This document shows positions 3,363 through 23,693 of a stretch of 49,116 bases of DNA, one piece after another (within the stretch, counting starts at the first letter, position 1; the number at the start of each line of letters is the position of its first letter). The position numbers were made by a program, and so were the translations under genes. The stretch is taken from NCBI GenBank assembly GCA_944387325.1, contig CALXEN010000030.1, positions 1-49,116 on the forward strand, in the 5' to 3' direction. Under the pieces are notes generated by a model. The model searched no databases and was not told the DNA's origin. It worked only from the letters and a program-made list of their open reading frames with translations. The DNA is from an uncultured Clostridia bacterium (lineage in GTDB: Bacteria; Bacillota; Clostridia; Oscillospirales; Ruminococcaceae).

Positions 3363-4127
3363 TCAGGGCTGCATCTCGGTCAAATACTCCCAGTACCGCT
3401 TGGGAAGGTTGCTTCTTTGGAGGGCTTCGTTCCTCCGTTCCTCAATGGTGAGGGCCTTGAAAAACGCCTTCCACAGGTCCTGATACTGCTTTTCCCGGGC
3501 TTCAGGGGTGGGGAGGATCACCGGCTTTTCAAACTCCAGATACTCCACCTTGCCGCCCCGTTTCAGAAGGGCCAATCCATGGCTGTTGTCAAAGATGACA
3601 AAATCCTCCTGGGGGAGCCGGTCGCAGAAGTGGTTTTGCAGAAGGGGCAGCACACAGTGGTGAGGCCGGATGACGGCGCCCAGCATCCCCTCCCGCTCCT
3701 GGAACCGGAGCACCTCCAGGTATTTTCCGCTTTCCCGGGAGACCTGCCGCTCCAGCTCCACCACCGCCGCCACATCCGGGTGCGCCAGCTGCCGGGCTGC
3801 CTGGGGGCCTTCCCGGTAGCAGAGTTCCAGGAACCGGAGGAGTTTCATCTCCTTGTCCGGGCTGTCGTTCAGGAAGGCATACATGACCAGCCGCCGGATC
3901 CAGGGTCCCATCTTTCGGATGCTGGCCTCCACCCTCTGGGCCTGGCCGGGGTGGGTGACGATCTCCACCTGGGGAAAGAGGGTGGTCTCGGGCCGGAGAA
4001 GCTGCCAGATATCGGTGGGCAGTTCCCGGTTTTGGTAGCTCTGAAAGACACAGCAGAGGAATCCCTCGTAGCTGCCGTCATACCAGTAAATGAGATCCTT
4101 GGGGATCAGAGCTTTTCTGCCAGGCAT
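3363..4127 (-). CDS. DUF4130 / TIGR03915-type probable DNA metabolism protein (partner of the radical SAM below)
   Basis: 254 aa. Its start overlaps the upstream radical SAM gene by 22 nt. Family assignment is from memory of the conserved two-gene pairing. Confidence 0.8.
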   Translation of the reverse strand: MPGRKALIPKDLIYWYDGSYEGFLCCVFQSYQNRELPTDIWQLLRPETTLFPQVEIVTHPGQAQRVEASIRKMGPWIRRLVMYAFLNDSPDKEMKLLRFLELCYREGPQAARQLAHPDVAAVVELERQVSRESGKYLEVLRFQEREGMLGAVIRPHHCVLPLLQNHFCDRLPQEDFVIFDNSHGLALLKRGGKVEYLEFEKPVILPTPEAREKQYQDLWKAFFKALTIEERRNEALQRSNLPKRYWEYLTEMQP

Positions 4128-5604: not shown

Positions 5605-6237
5605 TCACCACCGGGCCTTGGTCTCCACCACTTTCCCGGCAATGTAAAGGTGGGAAAGCTCCTCCCCCCGGAGGATCTTGTCCTCATACTGGGGATTGAA
5701 GGCTTTCAGGACCACAGCGTTCCCACGGCGGATGAACTTTTTCAGGGTGCCCTCGCCCCCTTCGTCCCCGTAGACCATAACCCCCAGGTCCCCGTCGTCC
5801 AGGGTGTTCTGGCGGTGGACCAGAGCCAGGTCTCCGTCAAAGATCCGGGGCTCCATGCTGTCCCCCTTCACCACCAGGAAGAAGTAGTTGTCCGGGTCCT
5901 TGACGCAGGCATACTCGGTGCCGTAGTCCTCCTCGAAGGCCAGGCCGCCGTACCCCGCCTTGACGGTGCCGATGACCGGGATAAGGCACTGCTTCCTCCC
6001 CCCGAAGAACCGTTCCTCCGCCTGGAGGGTCTCGGGCCCGGGCTGGTTGAAGCCCAGCAGGGTGTCGGTGGTGGTCTGGAGGACTTCGGCGATCTTGGCC
6101 ACCATATCGGGGGAGGGAGTGGCTTTATCCTTTTCCCACTTCCCCACCGCCTGCTGGGTGACCCCCAACCGGCTGGCCAGTTCTCCCTGGCTCATCTTCT
6201 GTGCCTTCCGGGCACTACGCAGAAATTCCGAAAACAT
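5605..6237 (-). CDS. LexA-like S24 autoprotease repressor with an XRE-type HTH
   Basis: 210 aa. HTH QGELASRLGVTQQAVGKWEKDK, Ala-Gly cleavage site VKAGYGG, catalytic Ser in VVKGDSMEP and Lys in GTLKKFIR. RBS GGAGGTG lies 7 nt upstream of the ATG. Confidence 0.9.
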   Translation of the reverse strand: MFSEFLRSARKAQKMSQGELASRLGVTQQAVGKWEKDKATPSPDMVAKIAEVLQTTTDTLLGFNQPGPETLQAEERFFGGRKQCLIPVIGTVKAGYGGLAFEEDYGTEYACVKDPDNYFFLVVKGDSMEPRIFDGDLALVHRQNTLDDGDLGVMVYGDEGGEGTLKKFIRRGNAVVLKAFNPQYEDKILRGEELSHLYIAGKVVETKARW

Positions 6238-6266: not shown

Positions 6267-6296
6267 ATTATACAACCATTGGTAGTTTCATGTAAA
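6267..6296 (-). promoter_or_regulatory. promoter of the LexA-like gene
   Basis: On the minus strand: TTTACA (6296-6291), 18-nt spacer, TATAAT (6272-6267). Confidence 0.5.
6272..6286. promoter_or_regulatory. candidate operator O1 (ACAAC-N5-GTAGT)
   Basis: ACAACCATTGGTAGT lies within the spacer and touches the -10 of the repressor promoter. It shares ACAACC with the sites at 6365, 6376 and 23672. Confidence 0.5.
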
Positions 6297-6335: not shown

Positions 6336-6364
6336 TTGACTTTCCTCAGGAAAGCCACTATAAT
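6336..6364 (+). promoter_or_regulatory. near-consensus sigma70 promoter of the small membrane protein gene
   Basis: TTGACT (6336-6341), 17-nt spacer, TATAAT (6359-6364). Confidence 0.65.
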
Positions 6365-6390
6365 ACAACCATAACACAACCATTTGTTGT
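6365..6390. promoter_or_regulatory. candidate operator O2 (half-site plus ACAAC-N5-GTTGT)
   Basis: ACAACCAT (6365-6372) followed by ACAACCATTTGTTGT (6376-6390), immediately downstream of the -10 and covering the likely transcription start. Confidence 0.55.
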
Positions 6391-6412
6391 TAATTCTGCG
6401 GAGGTAAGTAAA

Positions 6413-6658
6413 ATGAAACAGATACTTTGCAAGCTGGGTATTGTTCTGGGCGCTCTGGTATTTTGGCTGACCATGGTCTCCACTGCCTACGCCACCGTTT
6501 CCCTGCCCGCCGGGCTGCTGGTGCTGGCTTTCTCCGCTGTTACCATCCGGGTCTGCTGGCTGGAGCTGATCCATCTGGAGATCTCTTCCCGCCGTGCCAA
6601 GGTCCTGGCCCGGCGGAAGGTGCGGGCTGCCGTCTCCTGCAAGACCACCGCCGCCTGA
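6413..6658 (+). CDS. hypothetical 81-aa protein with two TM helices and a basic C-terminal tail
   Basis: GGAGG lies 8 nt upstream of the ATG. Hydrophobic segments LGIVLGALVFWLTMVSTAYA and LPAGLLVLAFSAVTIRVCWL, then tail SSRRAKVLARRKVRAAV. Has its own promoter and terminator. The overlapping ORF 6427-6957 looks off-frame (R/P/G-rich). Confidence 0.6.
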   Translation: MKQILCKLGIVLGALVFWLTMVSTAYATVSLPAGLLVLAFSAVTIRVCWLELIHLEISSRRAKVLARRKVRAAVSCKTTAA

Positions 6659-6750
6659 TTTGCCTTTGCCCCCGGGGAATGTGGGAGCGGGGCTCATGTC
6701 CCCCAGGGTCTGCCCCCTGTCCGCCCGCCTTCCCTTATATAAATGAAGAA

Positions 6751-6795
6751 CGGCATGGTCCCTCCGCCAGGGGGAGCCATGCCGCTTTTTGTTTT
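6751..6795 (+). terminator. intrinsic terminator
   Basis: CGGCATGG...CCATGCCG stem followed by CTTTTTGTTTT. It sits between the small ORF and the convergent pyrophosphatase gene. Confidence 0.75.
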
Positions 6796-10671: not shown

Positions 10672-11898
10672 ATGGGATACAACATTGTGGTAGGACAGAG
10701 CGGCGGCCCCACCGCCGTCATCAACTCCAGTCTGGCGGGGGTCTATGAAACCGCCAAAAAGCTGGGAGTGGAAAAAGTATATGGAATGAAGTTCGGCATC
10801 GAAGGGTTTCTCCAGGATATGCTGGTGGATCTGGATTCCCTTCTGAAAGGGGACATGAGCATCGAATTGCTGAAGCGGACCCCCTCCAGCTATCTGGGAT
10901 CCTGCCGGTACAAGCTGCCCGAATCCGAGCAGGATGAGGAGGTCTACCGGACCATCTTTGCCATACTGAAGAAGTACGAGATCCAGGCCATGTTCTATAT
11001 CGGCGGGAACGACAGCATGGATACCATTGCCAAGCTGTCCCGGTACGCCCAGACCCTGAACAGTCCCATACGGTTCATTGGGGTGCCCAAAACCATTGAC
11101 AACGACCTGATGCTCACCGACCACACCCCCGGCTACGGCAGCGCTGCCAAGTACATCGCCACCATCCTCAAGGAGATGATCTGCGACTCCACCGTATACA
11201 ACATCCGGAGTGTGACGGTGGCCGAGATTATGGGCCGCCACGCAGGCTGGCTGGCGGGAGCTGCCAGTCTGGCCGCCGGGGATGACGGAGAGGGGCCTGA
11301 CATCATTCTTCTGCCGGAAGTTCCCTTTGACCCGGAGGTATTCCTGAAACGGGTGGATGATCTTCAACGGTCCAAATCCAACGTGATCATTGCCGCCAGC
11401 GAGGGGGTAAAGACCCGGGAAGGCACCTACCTCTGCGACCTGGTGAGCACTGCCGGCCAGCTGGACGCCTTCGGCCACAAGGCCATCCTCAGCGGCACCA
11501 GCCGGTACCTGAGCGACCTCATTGGTAAAAACCTGGGCTGCAAGAGCCGGGCTATCGAGTTCAGCACCCTGCAGCGGTGTGCCAGTCATCTGGCCAGCCG
11601 AAACGACATTACCGAGGCGTACATGGTGGGCGGCGCCGCTGTGAAAGCCGCTCTGGAAGGTCAGACCGGAAAGATGAGCGCTCTGAAGCGGCTCCACAAT
11701 CATCCCTACCTCTGCGTCAGCGAAATGGTGGACGTACAGGCGGTGGCCAACCTGGAAAAGAAGGTCCCGCTGGAGTGGATCACCCCCGACGGCACCCATG
11801 TAACCAAGGAATTCCTCCACTACGCCCGCCCCCTGATCCAGGGAGAATTGAGTCCCATGTTTGTCAACGGTGTTCCTCTTCATATGCATCTGGACTGA
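10672..11898 (+). CDS. pfp: phosphofructokinase, PPi-dependent type by sequence determinants (copy 1)
   Basis: 408 aa. N-terminus GQSGGPTAVINSS, then IGGNDSMDT (Asp at the position equivalent to E. coli Gly104) and GVPKTIDNDL (Lys at position 124). Confidence 0.88.
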   Translation: MGYNIVVGQSGGPTAVINSSLAGVYETAKKLGVEKVYGMKFGIEGFLQDMLVDLDSLLKGDMSIELLKRTPSSYLGSCRYKLPESEQDEEVYRTIFAILKKYEIQAMFYIGGNDSMDTIAKLSRYAQTLNSPIRFIGVPKTIDNDLMLTDHTPGYGSAAKYIATILKEMICDSTVYNIRSVTVAEIMGRHAGWLAGAASLAAGDDGEGPDIILLPEVPFDPEVFLKRVDDLQRSKSNVIIAASEGVKTREGTYLCDLVSTAGQLDAFGHKAILSGTSRYLSDLIGKNLGCKSRAIEFSTLQRCASHLASRNDITEAYMVGGAAVKAALEGQTGKMSALKRLHNHPYLCVSEMVDVQAVANLEKKVPLEWITPDGTHVTKEFLHYARPLIQGELSPMFVNGVPLHMHLD

Positions 11899-12006: not shown

Positions 12007-12151
12007 GATATTCCGCATTGTGGAACTTTCCAGCAATCTGCTCAATGAGCAAGGGCCGCAATTGGAAAATTAAACGAAGACTGGTAGAATAAAGTCGTTC
12101 AGAAAAAAGGGTAAGCCTCCCTCGGAGGCATGGTTGGAAAGGGGAACATTT

Positions 12152-13375
12152 ATGGGCAAAAACGCAATCGTGGGCCAGTCCGGCGGACCCACCTCGGTGA
12201 TCAACGCAAGCCTGGCCGGGGTTTTCCAGAGCTGTCAAGCCCGGGGCGCCCAGGTGGTTTACGGAATGTGCAACGGAGTGGCCGGCCTGCTGGAAAAGCG
12301 GGTGGTAGATCTCTCCAGCCAGCTGAAGGACCATATGGATGTGGAGCTGCTCAAGCGGACCCCTTCCAGCTTCCTGGGATCCTGCCGGTACAAACTGCCC
12401 CCCATTGAGGAAGGGCGGGAGGTCTACGAGAAGCTCTTTGACATTCTGAAAGAGCTGGACATCGGCTACTTCTTCTACATTGGCGGCAATGACAGTATGG
12501 ACACCATCGGAAAGCTGGCCGACTACGGCAAGCTGGTGGGGAGCGACATCCGGTTCATGGGGGTGCCCAAGACCATCGACAACGACCTGATGATCACCGA
12601 CCACACCCCCGGCTACGGCAGCGCTGCCAAGTACATTGGGGTGGTCATGAAAGAGATCATCCGGGACGCCACCGTCTACGGCACCAACTATGTGACCATT
12701 GTGGAGATCATGGGCCGGAATGCCGGCTGGCTCACCGCCGCCGCTGCCCTGGCCCGGGCCGAGGACTGCGAGGGGGTGGACATGATCTGCCTGCCCGAGA
12801 TTCCCTTCAACGTGGACCGGTTCGTGGAGAAGGTGGCCGCCATGCAGGCCAAAAAGCCCAGCATCGTTATCGCCGTCTCCGAGGGGGTCAAGCTGGAGGA
12901 CGGCCGGTATGTCTGCGAGCTGGCGGATGACGTCCATGCGGTGGACGCCTTCGGTCACAAGGCCCTCACCGGCACCGCCCGGTTCCTGGCCAACACCTGC
13001 GCCCGCCGTCTGAACACCAAGACCCGGTGCATCGAGCTCTCCACCCTGCAGCGGTGTGCCGGACACCTCACCAGCCGCACCGACATTACCGAAGCCTACC
13101 AGGTGGGCGGCGCCGCTGCCAAGGCCGCTTTTGAGGGGCATACCGGGGAGATGGTAGCCATCAAGCGGGTCTCCAACGCCCCCTACCAGAGCACCACCGA
13201 ACTCCATCCCATCAGCGAGGTGGCCAACCTGGAGAAGAAGGTCCCCCTGGAATGGATCAACGACACTCACACCGATATGCTTCCGGCGTTCCTGGAATAC
13301 GCCCGGCCCCTGATCCAGGCCGAACTGACCCCCATTTATGTGGACGGTCTCCCCTGCCACATCTGTATGAACTGA
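12152..13375 (+). CDS. pfp: phosphofructokinase, PPi-dependent type by sequence determinants (copy 2, tandem paralog)
   Basis: 407 aa from ATG 12152 (RBS GGGGA 6 nt upstream; the track start 12134 is a TTG). Motifs GQSGGPTSVINAS, IGGNDSMDT and GVPKTIDNDL. Collinear with copy 1. Confidence 0.88.
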   Translation: MGKNAIVGQSGGPTSVINASLAGVFQSCQARGAQVVYGMCNGVAGLLEKRVVDLSSQLKDHMDVELLKRTPSSFLGSCRYKLPPIEEGREVYEKLFDILKELDIGYFFYIGGNDSMDTIGKLADYGKLVGSDIRFMGVPKTIDNDLMITDHTPGYGSAAKYIGVVMKEIIRDATVYGTNYVTIVEIMGRNAGWLTAAAALARAEDCEGVDMICLPEIPFNVDRFVEKVAAMQAKKPSIVIAVSEGVKLEDGRYVCELADDVHAVDAFGHKALTGTARFLANTCARRLNTKTRCIELSTLQRCAGHLTSRTDITEAYQVGGAAAKAAFEGHTGEMVAIKRVSNAPYQSTTELHPISEVANLEKKVPLEWINDTHTDMLPAFLEYARPLIQAELTPIYVDGLPCHICMN

Positions 13376-16440: not shown

Positions 16441-17840
16441 TACAGTCTGGCCAGCTTGGGGCCCTGGGCGGTGTCGGTGACGCTCCAGCCCAGACCGGTA
16501 AGCTGCTCCCGGATGGCGTCCGCCCGGGCCCAGTCCTTGGCCTTCTTGGCGGCGGACCGCTCATCCACCAGAGCGGTGACTTCAGCAGGGATCTCCTCTT
16601 CCTTCTTCCGGTTATAGAGAAGGCCCAGTACCCCGGTCAGCTCGTCCATGGTATGTGCGGCCTCCTCCAGAGCGGCCTTGGAGGCCTTGGAGGAAAGGGT
16701 GTTGATCTCCCGGACCAGGTCGAAGATGGCGGCCAGGGCGTCCGGGGTGTTCAGGTCGTCATCCATAGCCTTGATGAACTTCTCCCGGGCGGCGGCGCAC
16801 TTTTCTGTCAGGGTGTTCTCCCCTTCCCCGGCGGCATGGGCCAGGGCAAAGTCCAGGTTCTCCCGGCAGTTGTAAAGCCGCTCCAGGCTGTTCTTGCAGC
16901 TTTCGATCAACTCCACGGTGTAGTTCAGGGGCATACGGTACCCGGCGGTGAGCATGAAATACCGGATGGGCTCGTACCCGTACAGGTCGGCTACATCCCG
17001 GACGGTGAAGAAGTTGTGGAGGCTCTTGGACATCTTCTGGTTGTCCACGTTGATGAAACCGTTGTGCATCCAATACCGGGCAAAGGTGCATCCGTTGGCG
17101 CACTCGGACTGTGCGATCTCGTTCTCATGGTGGGGGAAGATCAGGTCCTGGCCGCCGGCGTGAAGGTCGATGGTCTTGCCCAGGTGGGTGCGGCTCATGG
17201 CGGAGCACTCAATGTGCCAGCCGGGGCGGCCCATACCGTAGGGGCTCTCCCAGGCGGGCTCCCCGGGCTTGGCGGCCTTCCAGACGGCAAAGTCGGCGGG
17301 GTCCTCCTTCAGGTCGTCCTCCATCTGGCTGCGGAGCTCCCGGTTGCCGCTTTCCAGGTCCTCCAGGTTCAGGTGGCTCAGCTTCCCGTAGCCGGGGTCG
17401 CTCTTCACCCGGAAGTACACATCCCCGTTCTTGGCCACATAGGCGTGGCCGGACTCCACCAGGTCCTTCACAATATCCAGGATCTGGGCGATGTGCTCGG
17501 TGGCCCTTGGCTGGACGGTGGGGACCTTGCAGTTGAGACCGGCAGCGTCCTTCAGGTACTCTGCCTCAAACCGCTGGGCCACCTCCTTCATGGAGGTGCC
17601 CTCCTCCTGGGCCTTGGTGATGAGCTTATCGTCGATATCGGTGATGTTGCTCACGTAGAGCACCTTGTTTCCCCGGTATTCCAGGTACCGGCGGAGGGTG
17701 TCAAAGACGATGAGGGGACGGGCGTTCCCAATATGAATATAGTTGTACACCGTGGGGCCGCAGACATAGATGCGGTATTCGCCGGGCACCTGGGGGACAA
17801 ACTCTTCCTTTTTCCGGGTAAGGGTGTTGAAAATTTCCAT
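16440..17840 (-). CDS. cysS: cysteine--tRNA ligase
   Basis: 466 aa with HIGNARP (HIGH) and KMSKS motifs. The stop overlaps the next ATG as TAATG. Confidence 0.96.
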   Translation of the reverse strand: MEIFNTLTRKKEEFVPQVPGEYRIYVCGPTVYNYIHIGNARPLIVFDTLRRYLEYRGNKVLYVSNITDIDDKLITKAQEEGTSMKEVAQRFEAEYLKDAAGLNCKVPTVQPRATEHIAQILDIVKDLVESGHAYVAKNGDVYFRVKSDPGYGKLSHLNLEDLESGNRELRSQMEDDLKEDPADFAVWKAAKPGEPAWESPYGMGRPGWHIECSAMSRTHLGKTIDLHAGGQDLIFPHHENEIAQSECANGCTFARYWMHNGFINVDNQKMSKSLHNFFTVRDVADLYGYEPIRYFMLTAGYRMPLNYTVELIESCKNSLERLYNCRENLDFALAHAAGEGENTLTEKCAAAREKFIKAMDDDLNTPDALAAIFDLVREINTLSSKASKAALEEAAHTMDELTGVLGLLYNRKKEEEIPAEVTALVDERSAAKKAKDWARADAIREQLTGLGWSVTDTAQGPKLARL

Positions 17841-20464: not shown

Positions 20465-21804
20465 GCTTGGTCGCCTCCGTTCAAAGCAGGATCAAAGGTG
20501 GCGTACAGGTCCACCATATCGCTTTCGTCAATGGTCACCCGGTAGAAATCCCCGGGATAGAGGGGCTGATCACTCTTGACGCAGACACAGCCGTCAATGT
20601 CGGGGGCATCCCCCCGGGTGCGGCAGAGATAGAGGCCGCTCTCCTCGTCGATGCCGTCACAGAGGACGGTGAGGGTCCGGCCCACCTGGGCCGCCTGTTT
20701 CTGGGCCATGATCTCGCTCTGGATGCGCATGACGGTGTCTGCCCGGCGCTGTTTTTCGCCCTCCTCCAGCTGATCGGGGAAGGTGGCGGCCACGGTGTGC
20801 TCCTCCTGGCTGTAGGCAAAGCAGCCCAGCCGGTCGAATTGCATCTCCCGGACAAACTGGCAGAGCTCCTCAAACTGCTCCTGGGTCTCCCCGGGGTACC
20901 CGGCGATAAGGGTGGTGCGGAGGGTGATGCCGGGAATTTCTCTGCGGAGGCGGGCGATGGTGTCCTCCAGCATGGCCTTGGTGCTCCGGCGGTTCATCCG
21001 CTTCAGCACCTGGTCATTGCAGTGCTGGATGGGCAGGTCCAGGTAGGGCAGGATCTTTTTTCCCTTAGCCATACAGGCGATGAGCTCCGGGGTGATCCTC
21101 TCCGGATAGGCGTAGAGGAGGCGGATCCAGTCCAGCCCCTGGATCTCGTCCAGTCCCTGGAGCAGCTCCACGATCTGGTTTTTCCCCAGATCCTCCCCAT
21201 AGGCGGTGGGGTCCTGGGCCACCACGATCAGTTCCCGGACACCCTCCCCTGCCAGCCACCGGGCCTCGGCCAGGCAGTCCTCCAGAGGACGGCTCCGCAT
21301 GGGGCCCCGGATGCCGGGGATGGCGCAGTAGTGGCAGTGGTTGCTGCACCCCTCTGCGATTTTCAGGTAGGCATAGTGCCGGGGGGTGCTGATGACCCGC
21401 TTGCCCCCCAGGGGCAGGTCGGTCTTGGGGCCGTAGGATTCCAGCTGTTCCCCTCCAAAGACCCGGTCCAGTATGGCGGGAAGGGCCTTGTTGCTGCCGA
21501 TCCCCACCACGGCGTCCACCTCGGGGATCTCCTGGCGGATCTGTTCCCGGTACCGCTCGGCCAGGCAGCCGGTAACGATGACCTTCAAATCCGGATTCTG
21601 CTCCTTATAGCTGCAGGCAGTGAGGATATTTTCAATGGCCTCCTCCTTGGCGCTGTCGATGAATCCGCAGGTGTTGACCAAAATGGCGTCCGCCTCCGAC
21701 AGATCGGCGGTGGTGGTGTGCCCCTGCAGCAGCAGACTGTGGCAGAACACATCCGCATCCACCTGATTTTTGGGGCAGCCCAAGCTGATGATGGCGATTT
21801 TCAT
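20461..21804 (-). CDS. rimO: ribosomal protein S12 methylthiotransferase RimO
   Basis: 447 aa. N-terminus ISLGCPKNQVD, radical SAM triad CSNHCHYC, C-terminal TRAM-like domain. ATGA overlaps on both sides. Confidence 0.9.
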   Translation of the reverse strand: MKIAIISLGCPKNQVDADVFCHSLLLQGHTTTADLSEADAILVNTCGFIDSAKEEAIENILTACSYKEQNPDLKVIVTGCLAERYREQIRQEIPEVDAVVGIGSNKALPAILDRVFGGEQLESYGPKTDLPLGGKRVISTPRHYAYLKIAEGCSNHCHYCAIPGIRGPMRSRPLEDCLAEARWLAGEGVRELIVVAQDPTAYGEDLGKNQIVELLQGLDEIQGLDWIRLLYAYPERITPELIACMAKGKKILPYLDLPIQHCNDQVLKRMNRRSTKAMLEDTIARLRREIPGITLRTTLIAGYPGETQEQFEELCQFVREMQFDRLGCFAYSQEEHTVAATFPDQLEEGEKQRRADTVMRIQSEIMAQKQAAQVGRTLTVLCDGIDEESGLYLCRTRGDAPDIDGCVCVKSDQPLYPGDFYRVTIDESDMVDLYATFDPALNGGDQA

Positions 21805-22445
21805 TCCTCGTAATACTCGCTTTCCTGGTTAGTGTATTCCTTGAGCAGGGCCCAGACCAGCCGGGGGGCAAACCCCCGTCGGCAGAGGGCTGCCGCCACC
21901 TGCTGGGTCTTTCCCTGAGCCAACTTTTCACGGTAGCTTTTCTGGATCAGGTATTCCAGAGCCTCCTGCTCCGGGTCGGAATTTTCCTCCTCCCAGAGCT
22001 GCTCCAGCACCCGGGCCACCGTCTGCCGCTCGATCCCCTTCTGGGCCAGGGCCTGGGCGATCTGATTCCGGCTTTTATGCTGGTTCATGAGATATCGGGC
22101 CCGGTGAAGGGCAAAGGCGGCGTCGTCCACCAGCTCCAGCTCCTGCATTTTGGCCAGAGCCGCAGCGCTGGACTGGGGGTCGAACTTCCGGCAGAGCTTC
22201 TGGTACAGCTCCCCCGAGGCGTGGTCCCGAAGGGAGAGGTACTCCAGGGCTTTGTCGCAGGCCTTCCGGGTCTCGCTTTTCTGCCGCAGCTCCTCCAGCC
22301 GGGGCAGGGTGAGGGTGAGACCCTCCCGGAGTTTTTCCCGGACCAGGGTCTCCTCGTCCACCGAGAAGAGAAACTGTCCTCCGGCAAAGAGGGCGTACCG
22401 GCCCCGCTTGGTCACCGAAATGGTCTCAATGGTCAGGGTCTCCAA
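21801..22445 (-). CDS. recX: recombination regulator RecX
   Basis: 214 aa helical-repeat protein. Its TTG start is the codon immediately after the recA TAA. Confidence 0.85.
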   Translation of the reverse strand: METLTIETISVTKRGRYALFAGGQFLFSVDEETLVREKLREGLTLTLPRLEELRQKSETRKACDKALEYLSLRDHASGELYQKLCRKFDPQSSAAALAKMQELELVDDAAFALHRARYLMNQHKSRNQIAQALAQKGIERQTVARVLEQLWEEENSDPEQEALEYLIQKSYREKLAQGKTQQVAAALCRRGFAPRLVWALLKEYTNQESEYYEE

Positions 22446-23600
22446 TTAGTCCTCCACCATAATATCCAGCTCCGCCTCGCTGCCGGTGGTCTTGGGGGCC
22501 TCCGGGGCGGAAGCGGCGGGAACCTGACCGGGCATGACCAGTTCCAGCTTGGGGCCGGCCCCCTTCTTGGCCTTCACCAGCTTGTCGGCGTTGGCCCGGA
22601 CAATGGCCTCCAGTTCCTGGGCCAGTTCCGGGTGCTCGCTGAGGTAATTCTTCACATTGTCCCGGCCCTGCCACCGCAGGTCCCCGTAGGTGAACCAGGC
22701 GCCGGCCTTCTGGATGGCCCCCAGCTGGACCGACAGATCCAGGATCTCCCCGATCTTGCTGACCCCTTCTCCGAACATGATATCGAACTCGGCCTCCTTG
22801 AAGGGGGGAGCCACCTTGTTCTTGACCACCTTGGCCCGGGTGCGGTTTCCAATGAAGTTGCCGCTGGCGTCCTTCAGGCCCTCAATACGGCGGACGTCGA
22901 TCCGGACGCTGGAATAGTATTTCAGGGCACGGCCGCCGGCGGTGACCTCCGGGTTGCCGTAGACCACCCCCACCTTCTCACGAAGCTGATTGATGAAGAT
23001 ACAGACGGTGTTGGTCTTGCCGATGACGCCGGTGAGCTTCCGGAGGGCCTGGCTCATGAGCCGGGCCTGGAGGCCCACGTGGCTGTCCCCCATCTCCCCC
23101 TCGATCTCGGCCCGGGGGACCATGGCGGCTACCGAGTCCAGAACGATGGCGTCAATGGCGCCGGAACGGACCAGAGCCTCGCAGATCTCCAGGGCCTGCT
23201 CGCCGGTGTCAGGCTGGCTGACCAGAAGGCTGTCAATGTCCACCCCCAGGGCCCGGGCGTAGGCGGGATCCAGGGCGTGCTCCACATCGATGAAGGCCAC
23301 CTCTCCCCCCTGCTTCTGGGCCTCGGCCAATACATGAAGGGCCAGGGTGGTCTTACCGCTGGATTCGGGGCCGTACACCTCAATGACACGGCCTCTGGGC
23401 ATACCGCCCACCCCCAGGGCCAAATCCAGCCCCAGGCTGCCGGTGGAGATAGCGTCCACCTGCATGGCGGTGTTGGCCCCCAACTTCATGACGGCCCCCT
23501 TGCCAAACTGCTTTTCAATCTGGGCAATGGCGGTAGCCAGTGCCGCTTTCTTGTTATCCGCCGGTTTGGGTGCGGCGGCTGCTGCTTTCTTTTCTGCCAT
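22446..23600 (-). CDS. recA: recombinase RecA
   Basis: 384 aa. Walker [10 protein letters not shown] and an unmistakable RecA core. It carries a longer-than-usual C-terminal tail of about 35 aa, Pro/Ala-rich and then acidic. Confidence 0.97.
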
Positions 23601-23646: not shown

Positions 23647-23675
23647 ATTATACACCACTCAAGGGCAAATTACAA
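23647..23675 (-). promoter_or_regulatory. recA promoter
   Basis: On the minus strand: TTGTAA (23675-23670), 17-nt spacer, TATAAT (23652-23647). Confidence 0.55.
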
Positions 23676-23693
23676 CCTCTAGTTGTAATTTGC
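23665..23693. promoter_or_regulatory. perfect 12-bp-arm palindrome over the recA -35 (candidate SOS-type operator)
   Basis: GCAAATTACAAC-CTCTA-GTTGTAATTTGC. The core ACAAC-N5-GTTGT is the same architecture as the sites at 6272 and 6376. Confidence 0.6.

Follow-up and report, generated by a model that had tools for sequence, protein, structure and literature searches.

A small membrane hairpin protein encoded next to a CI-like S24 repressor as a candidate effector of a non-canonical SOS-like regulon in Gemmiger, Faecalibacterium and their relatives

A small and poorly conserved membrane protein that inhibits cell division and is removed by proteolysis is encoded divergently from lexA in Bacillus, Listeria, Staphylococcus, Mycobacterium and Corynebacterium (PMC6851548). 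This arrangement raises the question of what is encoded at the corresponding position on contig CALXEN010000030.1 of an uncultured Clostridia bacterium from the Ruminococcaceae (GenBank assembly GCA_944387325.1), of which we have analysed a stretch of 49 kb (the window) in a genome with a GC content of about 60%. There, an open reading frame (ORF) of 81 codons (6413-6658, + strand) is found divergent from the gene of a LexA-like regulator (5605-6237, - strand), and an earlier note on this DNA had proposed its product to be a division inhibitor or membrane effector induced during the SOS response. Our analysis indicates that the small gene is most likely a member of an SOS regulon that is non-canonical and specific to its lineage, and we tentatively regard its product, with a probability somewhat short of even, as a short-lived membrane effector of this SOS-like regulon that delays division.

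The small ORF is a genuine protein-coding gene under purifying selection, as reflected in its composition and its evolution. The GC content at third codon positions (GC3) of 0.78 and the GC pattern over the codon positions resemble those of neighbouring genes, and the ratio of non-synonymous to synonymous substitution rates (dN/dS), determined against five close relatives, ranges from 0.04 to 0.19, and is about 0.15, at dS values of up to 0.8. Its ATG start codon is preceded at a distance of 8 nucleotides (nt) by a Shine-Dalgarno sequence (GGAGG, 6400-6404), with similar sequences found in front of nearly all syntenic ORFs, and further upstream by a promoter whose -35 (TTGACT, 6336-6341) and -10 hexamers (TATAAT, 6359-6364), at a spacing of 17 nt, match the consensus at 11 of 12 positions, thus bearing out its initial description as near-consensus. 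The scan identified four promoter-like sites in a region of 1.6 kb, compared to 0.7 expected, and each of the 35 syntenic intergenic regions has TTGAC(A/T) in the corresponding position. The -10 hexamer is part of a repeat, TATAATACAACCAT, that is common to the promoters of the small gene and the repressor gene. At its other end, a bidirectional intrinsic terminator (6741-6794; RNA fold of -31.7 kcal/mol, z = -5.0; preceded by an A-run and followed by a U-run) sits between the small gene and a convergent gene with DHH, DRTGG and CBS domains and serves both. The small gene is probably monocistronic, and the region 6336-6794 has all the parts of a short transcription unit. A chance ORF or an intergenic leader region that encodes no functional protein would be in line with the many long spurious ORFs found in GC-rich genomes and with the only three clusters detected in a plain search, but it is at odds with the low dN/dS, the GC3 value, the signals for translation initiation, promotion and termination, and a collinear family with conserved termini that extends across genera, and we regard this reading as effectively excluded.

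Several other elements were noticed in the same region. In 15 of 35 loci (L008-L083), compared to 1.3 expected, the 5' untranslated region of the small gene contains the pentamer TGCGG (usually TTGCGG); it abuts the Shine-Dalgarno sequence in places, is elsewhere located 20-40 nt upstream within a small hairpin, and is found in the window at 6396-6400. An inverted repeat (I3, 6215-6224 and 6394-6403), one arm of which is repressor coding sequence, was judged coincidental, and the palindrome TTTCCT-C-AGGAAA in the promoter spacer (I2) was set aside, as it is not kept in the loci L006 and L007.

The earlier note had expected homology searches to miss the protein. This applies to a plain phmmer-type search with the 81-residue sequence, where the three clusters found share 81-90% identity and are all in the same gene order, but not to a profile of syntenic ORFs, which recovers about 86 clusters. 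To the DNA around repressor homologues, which are abundant in Gemmiger, Faecalibacterium and Subdoligranulum, belong 80 fetched loci, 70 of them with enough upstream sequence. In 34 of these 70, and in one more recognized by eye (L084), an ORF of 75-106 residues with two hydrophobic helices is found divergent from the repressor gene, in members of Gemmiger, Subdoligranulum, Cibiobacter and Faecalibacterium. These ORFs align collinearly from an N-terminal MK…K via helix 1, a loop of the pattern A-x-x-[EQ]-G-[TS]-[LI], helix 2 and R/N-x-x-[CW] to a tail of variable length with a conserved C-terminus. In a profile-profile comparison (hhalign), the window clade matched all other members with a probability of 97.6% (E=2.7e-12, 68 columns), compared to 3.6% in a control with reversed sequences; this independent split was used in place of a comparison of A1 with A3, which was discarded as circular because A3 holds window-clade sequences. 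Both groups are also linked by P0249, whose contig displays the same order of XRE-S24 repressor, small gene and DHH gene and the same layout of promoter and boxes, the DHH gene being the other neighbour in the window clade only.

A search of 5.8 billion proteins with the syntenic-ORF profile provided 74 matches, and an exhaustive search of 1.84 billion representatives with a hidden Markov model provided 86 clusters, of which all but two contain small proteins of 40-143 residues. No Pfam or other annotated domain was found in these clusters, and the sole name encountered was 'hypothetical protein [Faecalibacterium gallinarum]'. The window protein itself has no match in Pfam, NCBIfam (E<=0.01), PHROG, PADLOC or the sequences of the PDB, consistent with the earlier statement that it lacks LysM or any other recognizable domain. 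The family is undescribed so far. Neither the small protein nor a Gemmiger homologue was matched by tblastn in 50,697 phage records, and we have rejected a phage holin, a defence system or a prophage as origin of the gene in light of the absent PHROG, PADLOC and phage-record matches and the housekeeping character of the chromosome in the window.

Judged by synteny, the small gene has kept its position beside the XRE-S24 repressor across several genera while the sequence of its protein diverges fast, which is the conservation of place and not of sequence that the earlier note had suggested to look for (34-35 of 70 loci). In the F. prausnitzii complex, the repressor is kept but a tRNA-Ser pair takes the place of the small gene (10/10 loci checked). 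In these loci (L016, L018, L020, L027, L036, L047, L057, L063, L065 and L068, at about 3550-3780), the pair consists of tRNA-Ser(TGA) and tRNA-Ser(GCT) with their own strong promoter, and the autoregulatory box of the repressor is retained though the small gene is absent at that position. In Cibiobacter, the orthologue of locus L030 is represented in the protein database by more than 20 distinct versions with frameshifted or truncated C-terminus (P0152, P0156, P0158-P0164, P0168, P0170, P0174-P0180, P0182-P0193), some of which are adapter or contig-end artefacts and others of which enter one alternative frame at differing points of a Pro/Gln-rich tail. They point either to a hot spot for indels at which the C-terminal signal is lost or to noise from assembly.

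The gene on the other side of the intergenic region encodes a protein with an HTH_3 (E=2e-17) and a Peptidase_S24 domain (E=4e-24), which agrees with its earlier description as LexA-like in a restricted sense. Its score of 67.7 bits against the LexA model TIGR00498 is below the cut-off of 110.95, with a match over the S24 part only, and its N-terminus is of the HTH_3/CI-like type and not the winged helix of LexA_DNA_bind, with phrog_4 (CI-like repressors) as best PHROG. By sequence, we classify the protein as a non-canonical LexA analogue and not as canonical LexA. The predicted cleavage site Ala94-Gly95 and the residues Ser127 and Lys166 are invariant in 20 homologues, and the marks of a functional SOS-type S24 repressor, namely the Ala-Gly site, the Ser/Lys dyad and a palindromic box in the promoter of its gene as well as at recA, are thus all present at the sequence level. 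In the combination of an S24 peptidase with a CI-like and non-LexA DNA-binding domain, in the presumed SOS-like regulon and in the presumed autoregulation, it resembles HdiR of Streptococcaceae, UmuDAb/DdrR of Acinetobacter and the non-canonical LexA proteins of Bacteroidetes, and the operators of the latter show the same dyad-N5-dyad organization (PMC8565304). It differs in its occurrence in Oscillospiraceae (Firmicutes), the Bacteroidetes family being reported as restricted to that phylum, in the sequence of its box and, compared to HdiR and UmuDAb, in its apparent control of recA. Nothing specific on an SOS regulator of Faecalibacterium or Oscillospiraceae was found in the searchable literature.

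A palindromic element connects the small gene with the repressor gene and recA. A perfect copy, ACAAC-CATTT-GTTGT (ACAACCATTTGTTGT, 6376-6390), is located 12 nt after the -10 hexamer and covers about positions +6 to +20 of the predicted transcript of the small gene, where the earlier note had already placed a candidate operator, and 29 of the 34 related syntenic loci have an equivalent box, likewise perfect, in the same place. Directly 3' of the -10 hexamer follows a copy of the half-site (ACAACCAT, 6365-6372; direct-repeat family D1). An imperfect copy (ACAACCATTGGTAGT, 6272-6286) resides inside the spacer/-10 region of the repressor promoter (TTTACA-18-TATAAT, 6267-6296, - strand, 11/12 match), which is kept in all loci, and is predicted to act as autoregulation site. 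Another perfect copy (ACAACCTCTAGTTGT, 23672-23686) overlaps the -35 hexamer (TTGTAA) of the recA-recX promoter (TTGTAA-17-TATAAT), upstream of recA (22446-23600, - strand; TIGR02012, E=1.8e-161), which by its shared operator serves as marker of the regulon, and of recX (21801-22445), which follows after it. The window contains four matches to ACAAC-N5-GTTGT, compared to 0.5 expected, the remaining one at 17030, inside cysS, being taken as chance. In the 35 intergenic regions, boxes with up to one mismatch are found at a mean of 2.5 per region, compared to a density of 0.015 per kb over 532 kb of flanking DNA from these loci.

The layout of these boxes is fixed in the relatives, where TTGACA is directly followed by box 1 in the spacer, then by the -10 hexamer and by box 2 about 34 nt after box 1. 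In the window clade, box 1 is lost, and box 2 and the half-site after the -10 hexamer are kept. A half-site, AAAGTTGTAAA, is found about 20 nt upstream of the -35 hexamer of the small gene in most loci (L008-L085), and chicken-type Faecalibacterium loci contain a further one, GGTTGTAAA, 3' of box 2. The boxes of the small gene are nearly always perfect, whereas in most loci the one at the repressor promoter deviates at one position, a difference that fits a product that must be kept off. In the simplest reading of these sequences, the small gene would be the most heavily operated target in the regulon of the CI-like S24 repressor.

The same element distinguishes recA of this lineage from that of more distant bacteria. 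In 80 recA loci fetched from metagenomes, the six closest ones (76-81% identity; L086-L091) all contain a perfect box with differing spacers at the same position of the promoter, whereas 29 of the 74 more distant ones contain CGAAC-N4-GTTCG (the Cheo box) and only one an ACAAC box, even at one mismatch. Neither of the two boxes was found within 350 nt upstream of the start of the recA alignment in loci L092-L105 (67-76% identity), and the only match to the Cheo box in the 49 kb of the window has one mismatch, is at chance level and located away from the small gene, the repressor gene and recA. These patterns suggest that SOS box and repressor have been swapped as a whole in the Gemmiger/Faecalibacterium lineage. 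Because the operators of the small gene are also present at the repressor promoter and at recA, we infer, on what we consider solid grounds, that the small gene is part of a DNA-damage regulon.

The shared operator might instead define a small private regulon of a local XRE-S24 repressor that is unrelated to DNA damage and that responds, for example, to envelope stress or serves in phage exclusion. CI-like S24 regulators such as HdiR and IrvR control non-SOS functions in some species (PMC8565304, PMC7101444), and recA is the sole classical SOS gene present in the window to examine. Such a role is nevertheless very unlikely, in view of a recA box that is perfect and conserved across relatives, the lack of phage or defence-system matches in this housekeeping context, and the genes that accompany the repressor. 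Downstream of it, a putative DNA modification/repair radical SAM protein (TIGR03916, 4106-5500, - strand, E=1.7e-198) is followed by a putative DNA repair protein (TIGR03915/DUF4130, 3363-4127, - strand), the latter conserved in 70/80 loci, and the order of the three genes is kept in 72/80. Between the repressor gene and the radical-SAM gene we have also noticed a promoter-like site (TTGAGA-18-TATAAT, 5587-5558) and a small hairpin, with no box at this place.

What kind of protein would be produced upon release of this repression? The window protein, described earlier as having two transmembrane (TM) helices and a basic tail, is indeed predicted to form a membrane hairpin, with TM1 at about residues 8-27, a loop (TVSLP) on the outside, TM2 at about residues 31-53 and a cytoplasmic tail ending with -TTAA, in which residues 55-81 contain 8 Lys/Arg and a single acidic residue. 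AlphaFold2, run with the family alignment, predicts helices at 2-27 and 31-80 that are connected by a three-residue turn (predicted local distance difference test, pLDDT, of 69.7), and two helices are also apparent from hydropathy. Across 35 members, the mean numbers of Lys+Arg and Asp+Glu amount to 2.4 and 0.4 before helix 1, 0.14 and 0.63 in the loop and 7.2 and 2.5 in the tail, a charge distribution that, by the positive-inside rule, places both termini in the cytoplasm and the loop outside. The small protein is thus predicted to be a helical hairpin of N-in/C-in topology with a cytoplasmic tail, whose only extracytoplasmic part would be a loop of about five residues. We have considered whether helix 1 might be a signal peptide that is cleaved off (AYA|T in the window protein, AFA|E in that of Faecalibacterium), as many members have small residues at -3 and -1, but have not adopted this assignment since the best-conserved positions are E/Q-G and not AxA, some members contain Ile at -1 and the N-terminal K-x-x-x-C-K is conserved. 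Helix 1 could alternatively be removed in this way, and the orientation of the tail would still be cytoplasmic.

The tail ranges from about 25 to 55 residues and shifts in composition between clades. Its end is -AA in 50 and -VA in 15, together 65, of 73 family representatives of 70-135 residues. It reads PxLRVVRGGRAA in Gemmiger, Subdoligranulum and Cibiobacter, P-L-R-V-A in Faecalibacterium and …K-T-T-A-A in the window clade, with the window protein (…RRKVRAAVSCKTTAA) lacking LRVV. The motif L[RQH]VV is contained within the last 16 residues of 29/73 representatives, in some of them as RPALRVV that is identical to SspB, and in several members RPALRVV is followed by RGGR. In one protein (P0128), the C-terminal motif is tandemly duplicated (…PPLRVMRGEHA…PPLRVMRGGHAA). 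The peptide of E. coli SspB that docks to the N-domain of ClpX, termed XB, is RGGRPALRVVK (PMC8808172, PMC3983244), and it competes with FtsZ for this domain (PMC3983244). ClpX degrons of the ssrA type are characterized by -AA at the C-terminus (C-motif 1; PMC3983244), and a small, non-polar end of this kind is present in the window protein (-TAA), on a tail with a predicted cytoplasmic location. No tmRNA tag to compare with it was found in the window or in 166 fetched loci. The ssrA tag ends with LAA, and the N-terminal fragment of LexA reportedly with VAA. Owing to its conserved -AA/-VA end and its likeness to ClpX peptides, we propose that the tail may be a signal for a cytoplasmic AAA+ protease.

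The resemblance also permits a different role, in which the small protein would be a membrane-anchored docking or regulatory factor whose PxLRVVRGGRAA tail binds the N-domain of ClpX and recruits or titrates ClpX(P), altering the turnover of FtsZ, the cleaved repressor fragment or other substrates, or in which it would modulate the repressor or RecA directly in a DdrR-like manner. It is consistent with the presence of RPALRVV and RGGR of the SspB XB peptide in the family consensus (PMC8808172, PMC3983244), with the rivalry between that peptide and FtsZ at the N-domain (PMC3983244), with the predicted cytoplasmic location of the tail and with the requirement of HdiR for Clp to be fully derepressed (PMC8565304). 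For the variant as co-repressor, DdrR, a co-repressor for UmuDAb that is unique to Acinetobacter, offers a precedent (PMC11332147). The likeness is, however, that of a short motif noticed after the fact, with the order of its elements permuted; the window clade keeps only …KTTAA and Faecalibacterium the shorter …LRVA, so that the full motif is not universal, and a plain degron would account for these data in a simpler way. We know of no SspB in Firmicutes, and SspB-type tethering is, to our knowledge, documented in proteobacteria. We consider this role as a whole rather unlikely, and its most specific form, where an XB-like LRVV and -AA tail on a damage-induced hairpin would tether or titrate ClpX(P) to control division via FtsZ turnover or assembly, or the clearance of the repressor fragment, as more doubtful still. 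The peptide PALRVVRGGRAA and the tail of the window protein would be candidate ligands of the cognate ClpX N-domain.

We return to the effector that delays division and to the sequence of events it would involve. In undamaged cells, the CI-like XRE-S24 repressor would bind the ACAAC-N5-GTTGT boxes that cover the start of the small gene, the promoter of the repressor gene and the -35 hexamer of recA, and in most relatives also the spacer between the -35 and -10 hexamers of the small gene. Upon DNA damage, activated RecA would promote self-cleavage of the repressor at Ala94-Gly95 and the near-consensus promoter of the small gene would fire. Its product would insert into the membrane as N-in/C-in hairpin with a basic cytoplasmic tail, and its TM helices would act on a target in the membrane, with the machinery for septal cell-wall synthesis as the most probable one, to delay division during DNA repair in the way of the unrelated YneA, SosA and SidA. 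It would afterwards be removed quickly via its conserved -AA/-VA tail by a cytoplasmic AAA+ protease, either ClpXP or FtsH. In this sequence we infer the induction by damage, the target in division and the proteolytic switch-off. A role as division inhibitor is suggested by precedent and by four features that fit, the position of the gene, its load of operators, its strong promoter and the conserved terminal signal.

The precedents share part of this organization. Division inhibitors that Gram-positive bacteria produce upon SOS induction are switched off by proteolysis at the C-terminus, with YneA and SosA being degraded by CtpA, as SulA is by Lon (PMC6851548), and the TM helix of YneA acts on FtsW, which is predicted likewise for other inhibitors (PMC13396833). 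The earlier comparison with YneA, SosA, DivS and ChiZ holds for the divergent position with repressor boxes, but not for the architecture, as these proteins have a single TM helix and an extracellular C-terminus, mostly with LysM (PMC6851548). As for YneA (B. subtilis, Listeria) and ChiZ (M. tuberculosis), we find a small membrane protein, divergent from the SOS repressor gene, with multiple boxes in the shared intergenic region, and expect its activity to be limited by proteolysis; in contrast to them, it has two helices, no LysM and a predicted cytoplasmic C-terminus, and it would be regulated by a CI-like XRE-S24 protein via ACAAC-N5-GTTGT instead of LexA via the Cheo box. With SosA (S. aureus) and DivS (C. 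glutamicum), the protein shares a length of about 80 residues, the lack of LysM, a genus-restricted and fast-evolving sequence, the position divergent from the repressor gene and a conserved extreme C-terminus, which in their case is a turnover signal (PMC6851548). Whereas the extracellular C-terminal part of the single-TM protein SosA is degraded by the extracytoplasmic CtpA, the predicted cytoplasmic tail of the hairpin would imply ClpXP, FtsH or Lon. In its design, the protein is closer to SidA than to the YneA/SosA-type families. SidA and DidA of Caulobacter are similarly small, almost fully embedded in the membrane and without extracytoplasmic domain, and act on FtsW/FtsN in the late divisome, and SidA is under control of LexA (as summarised in PMC6851548); SidA differs in its 29 residues, its single TM helix, a gene that is not adjacent to lexA, an unrelated sequence and the lack of a conserved C-terminal motif.

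Several points weigh against a role as division inhibitor. The binding of the repressor to the boxes and its RecA-dependent cleavage are presumed. Library scans and profile search have linked the protein to no known inhibitor, either by sequence or by domain, with no homology to YneA, SosA or SidA detected in the profile search that returned 86 clusters and no pairwise comparison made with the sequences of YneA or SosA. The known Gram-positive inhibitors combine one TM helix with a C-terminal domain outside the cell, usually LysM, and a protein with essentially no extracellular part could not employ the peptidoglycan-binding mechanism of YneA. The absence of a small gene at this position in the F. 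prausnitzii complex implies that its function is dispensable or supplied elsewhere, the window protein lacks the LRVV part of the tail motif, and a canonical LexA may be encoded elsewhere in these genomes.

Some of the same features would also suit a toxin. TisB, DinQ and HokE are type I membrane toxins controlled by LexA, consisting of single helices of 20-50 residues under antisense RNA control, and a protein acting in the manner of TisB, DinQ or Hok would, upon SOS induction, oligomerize as hairpin and dissipate the proton-motive force to cause dormancy instead of a specific block of the divisome. We judge this unlikely. The protein is small, very hydrophobic, tightly repressed by perfect boxes like SOS-box-controlled proteins whose expression is to be kept very low, and without extracellular domain; its tail, which is basic and amphipathic, could be placed along the surface of the membrane, it is dispensable in one species complex, and the many frameshifted variants of Cibiobacter could reflect counter-selection. 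However, its family members comprise 75-106 residues (81 in the window) with two helices and a long tail of conserved end, compared to a single helix of 20-40 residues, and in the window clade a strong Shine-Dalgarno sequence and a short 5' untranslated region are found. Type I toxins are controlled on the level of RNA, whereas the degron-like C-terminus points to a switch-off at the protein level that is typical of checkpoint proteins. No antisense promoter over the small ORF was detected in the consensus promoter scan, in which the absence of a small RNA was not rigorously tested.

Elsewhere in the window, two adjacent paralogues of phosphofructokinase (PF00365) are encoded at 10672-11898 and 12134-13375 (+ strand).

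Collectively, the regulatory system described here seems to represent a non-canonical SOS circuit, so far unreported, of major commensals of the gut. With Faecalibacterium, Gemmiger and Subdoligranulum, it concerns some of the most abundant bacteria of the human gut and of those most associated with health, and the DNA-damage response of such commensals bears on prophage induction, on the effects of antibiotics and chemotherapy and on mutagenesis. Control of recA by a CI-like XRE-S24 protein via ACAAC-N5-GTTGT, as suggested by our data, would add one more independent example of an SOS-like system governed by an S24 protein other than LexA to those of HdiR (Streptococcaceae), UmuDAb (Acinetobacter) and the LexA-like regulators found in Bacteroidetes. 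The XB-like tail provides a specific and directly testable biochemical hypothesis. If it were a tether of ClpX, it would be the first of the SspB type outside the proteobacterial adaptor, and part of an SOS checkpoint that acts via an unfoldase instead of direct binding to the divisome, in a previously undescribed SOS system with a CI-like repressor. If the hairpin protein is a checkpoint effector, it would represent a structurally different and convergent SOS division inhibitor, consisting of a membrane hairpin with a cytoplasmic degron, and would provide a means to arrest division in organisms whose manipulation is difficult.

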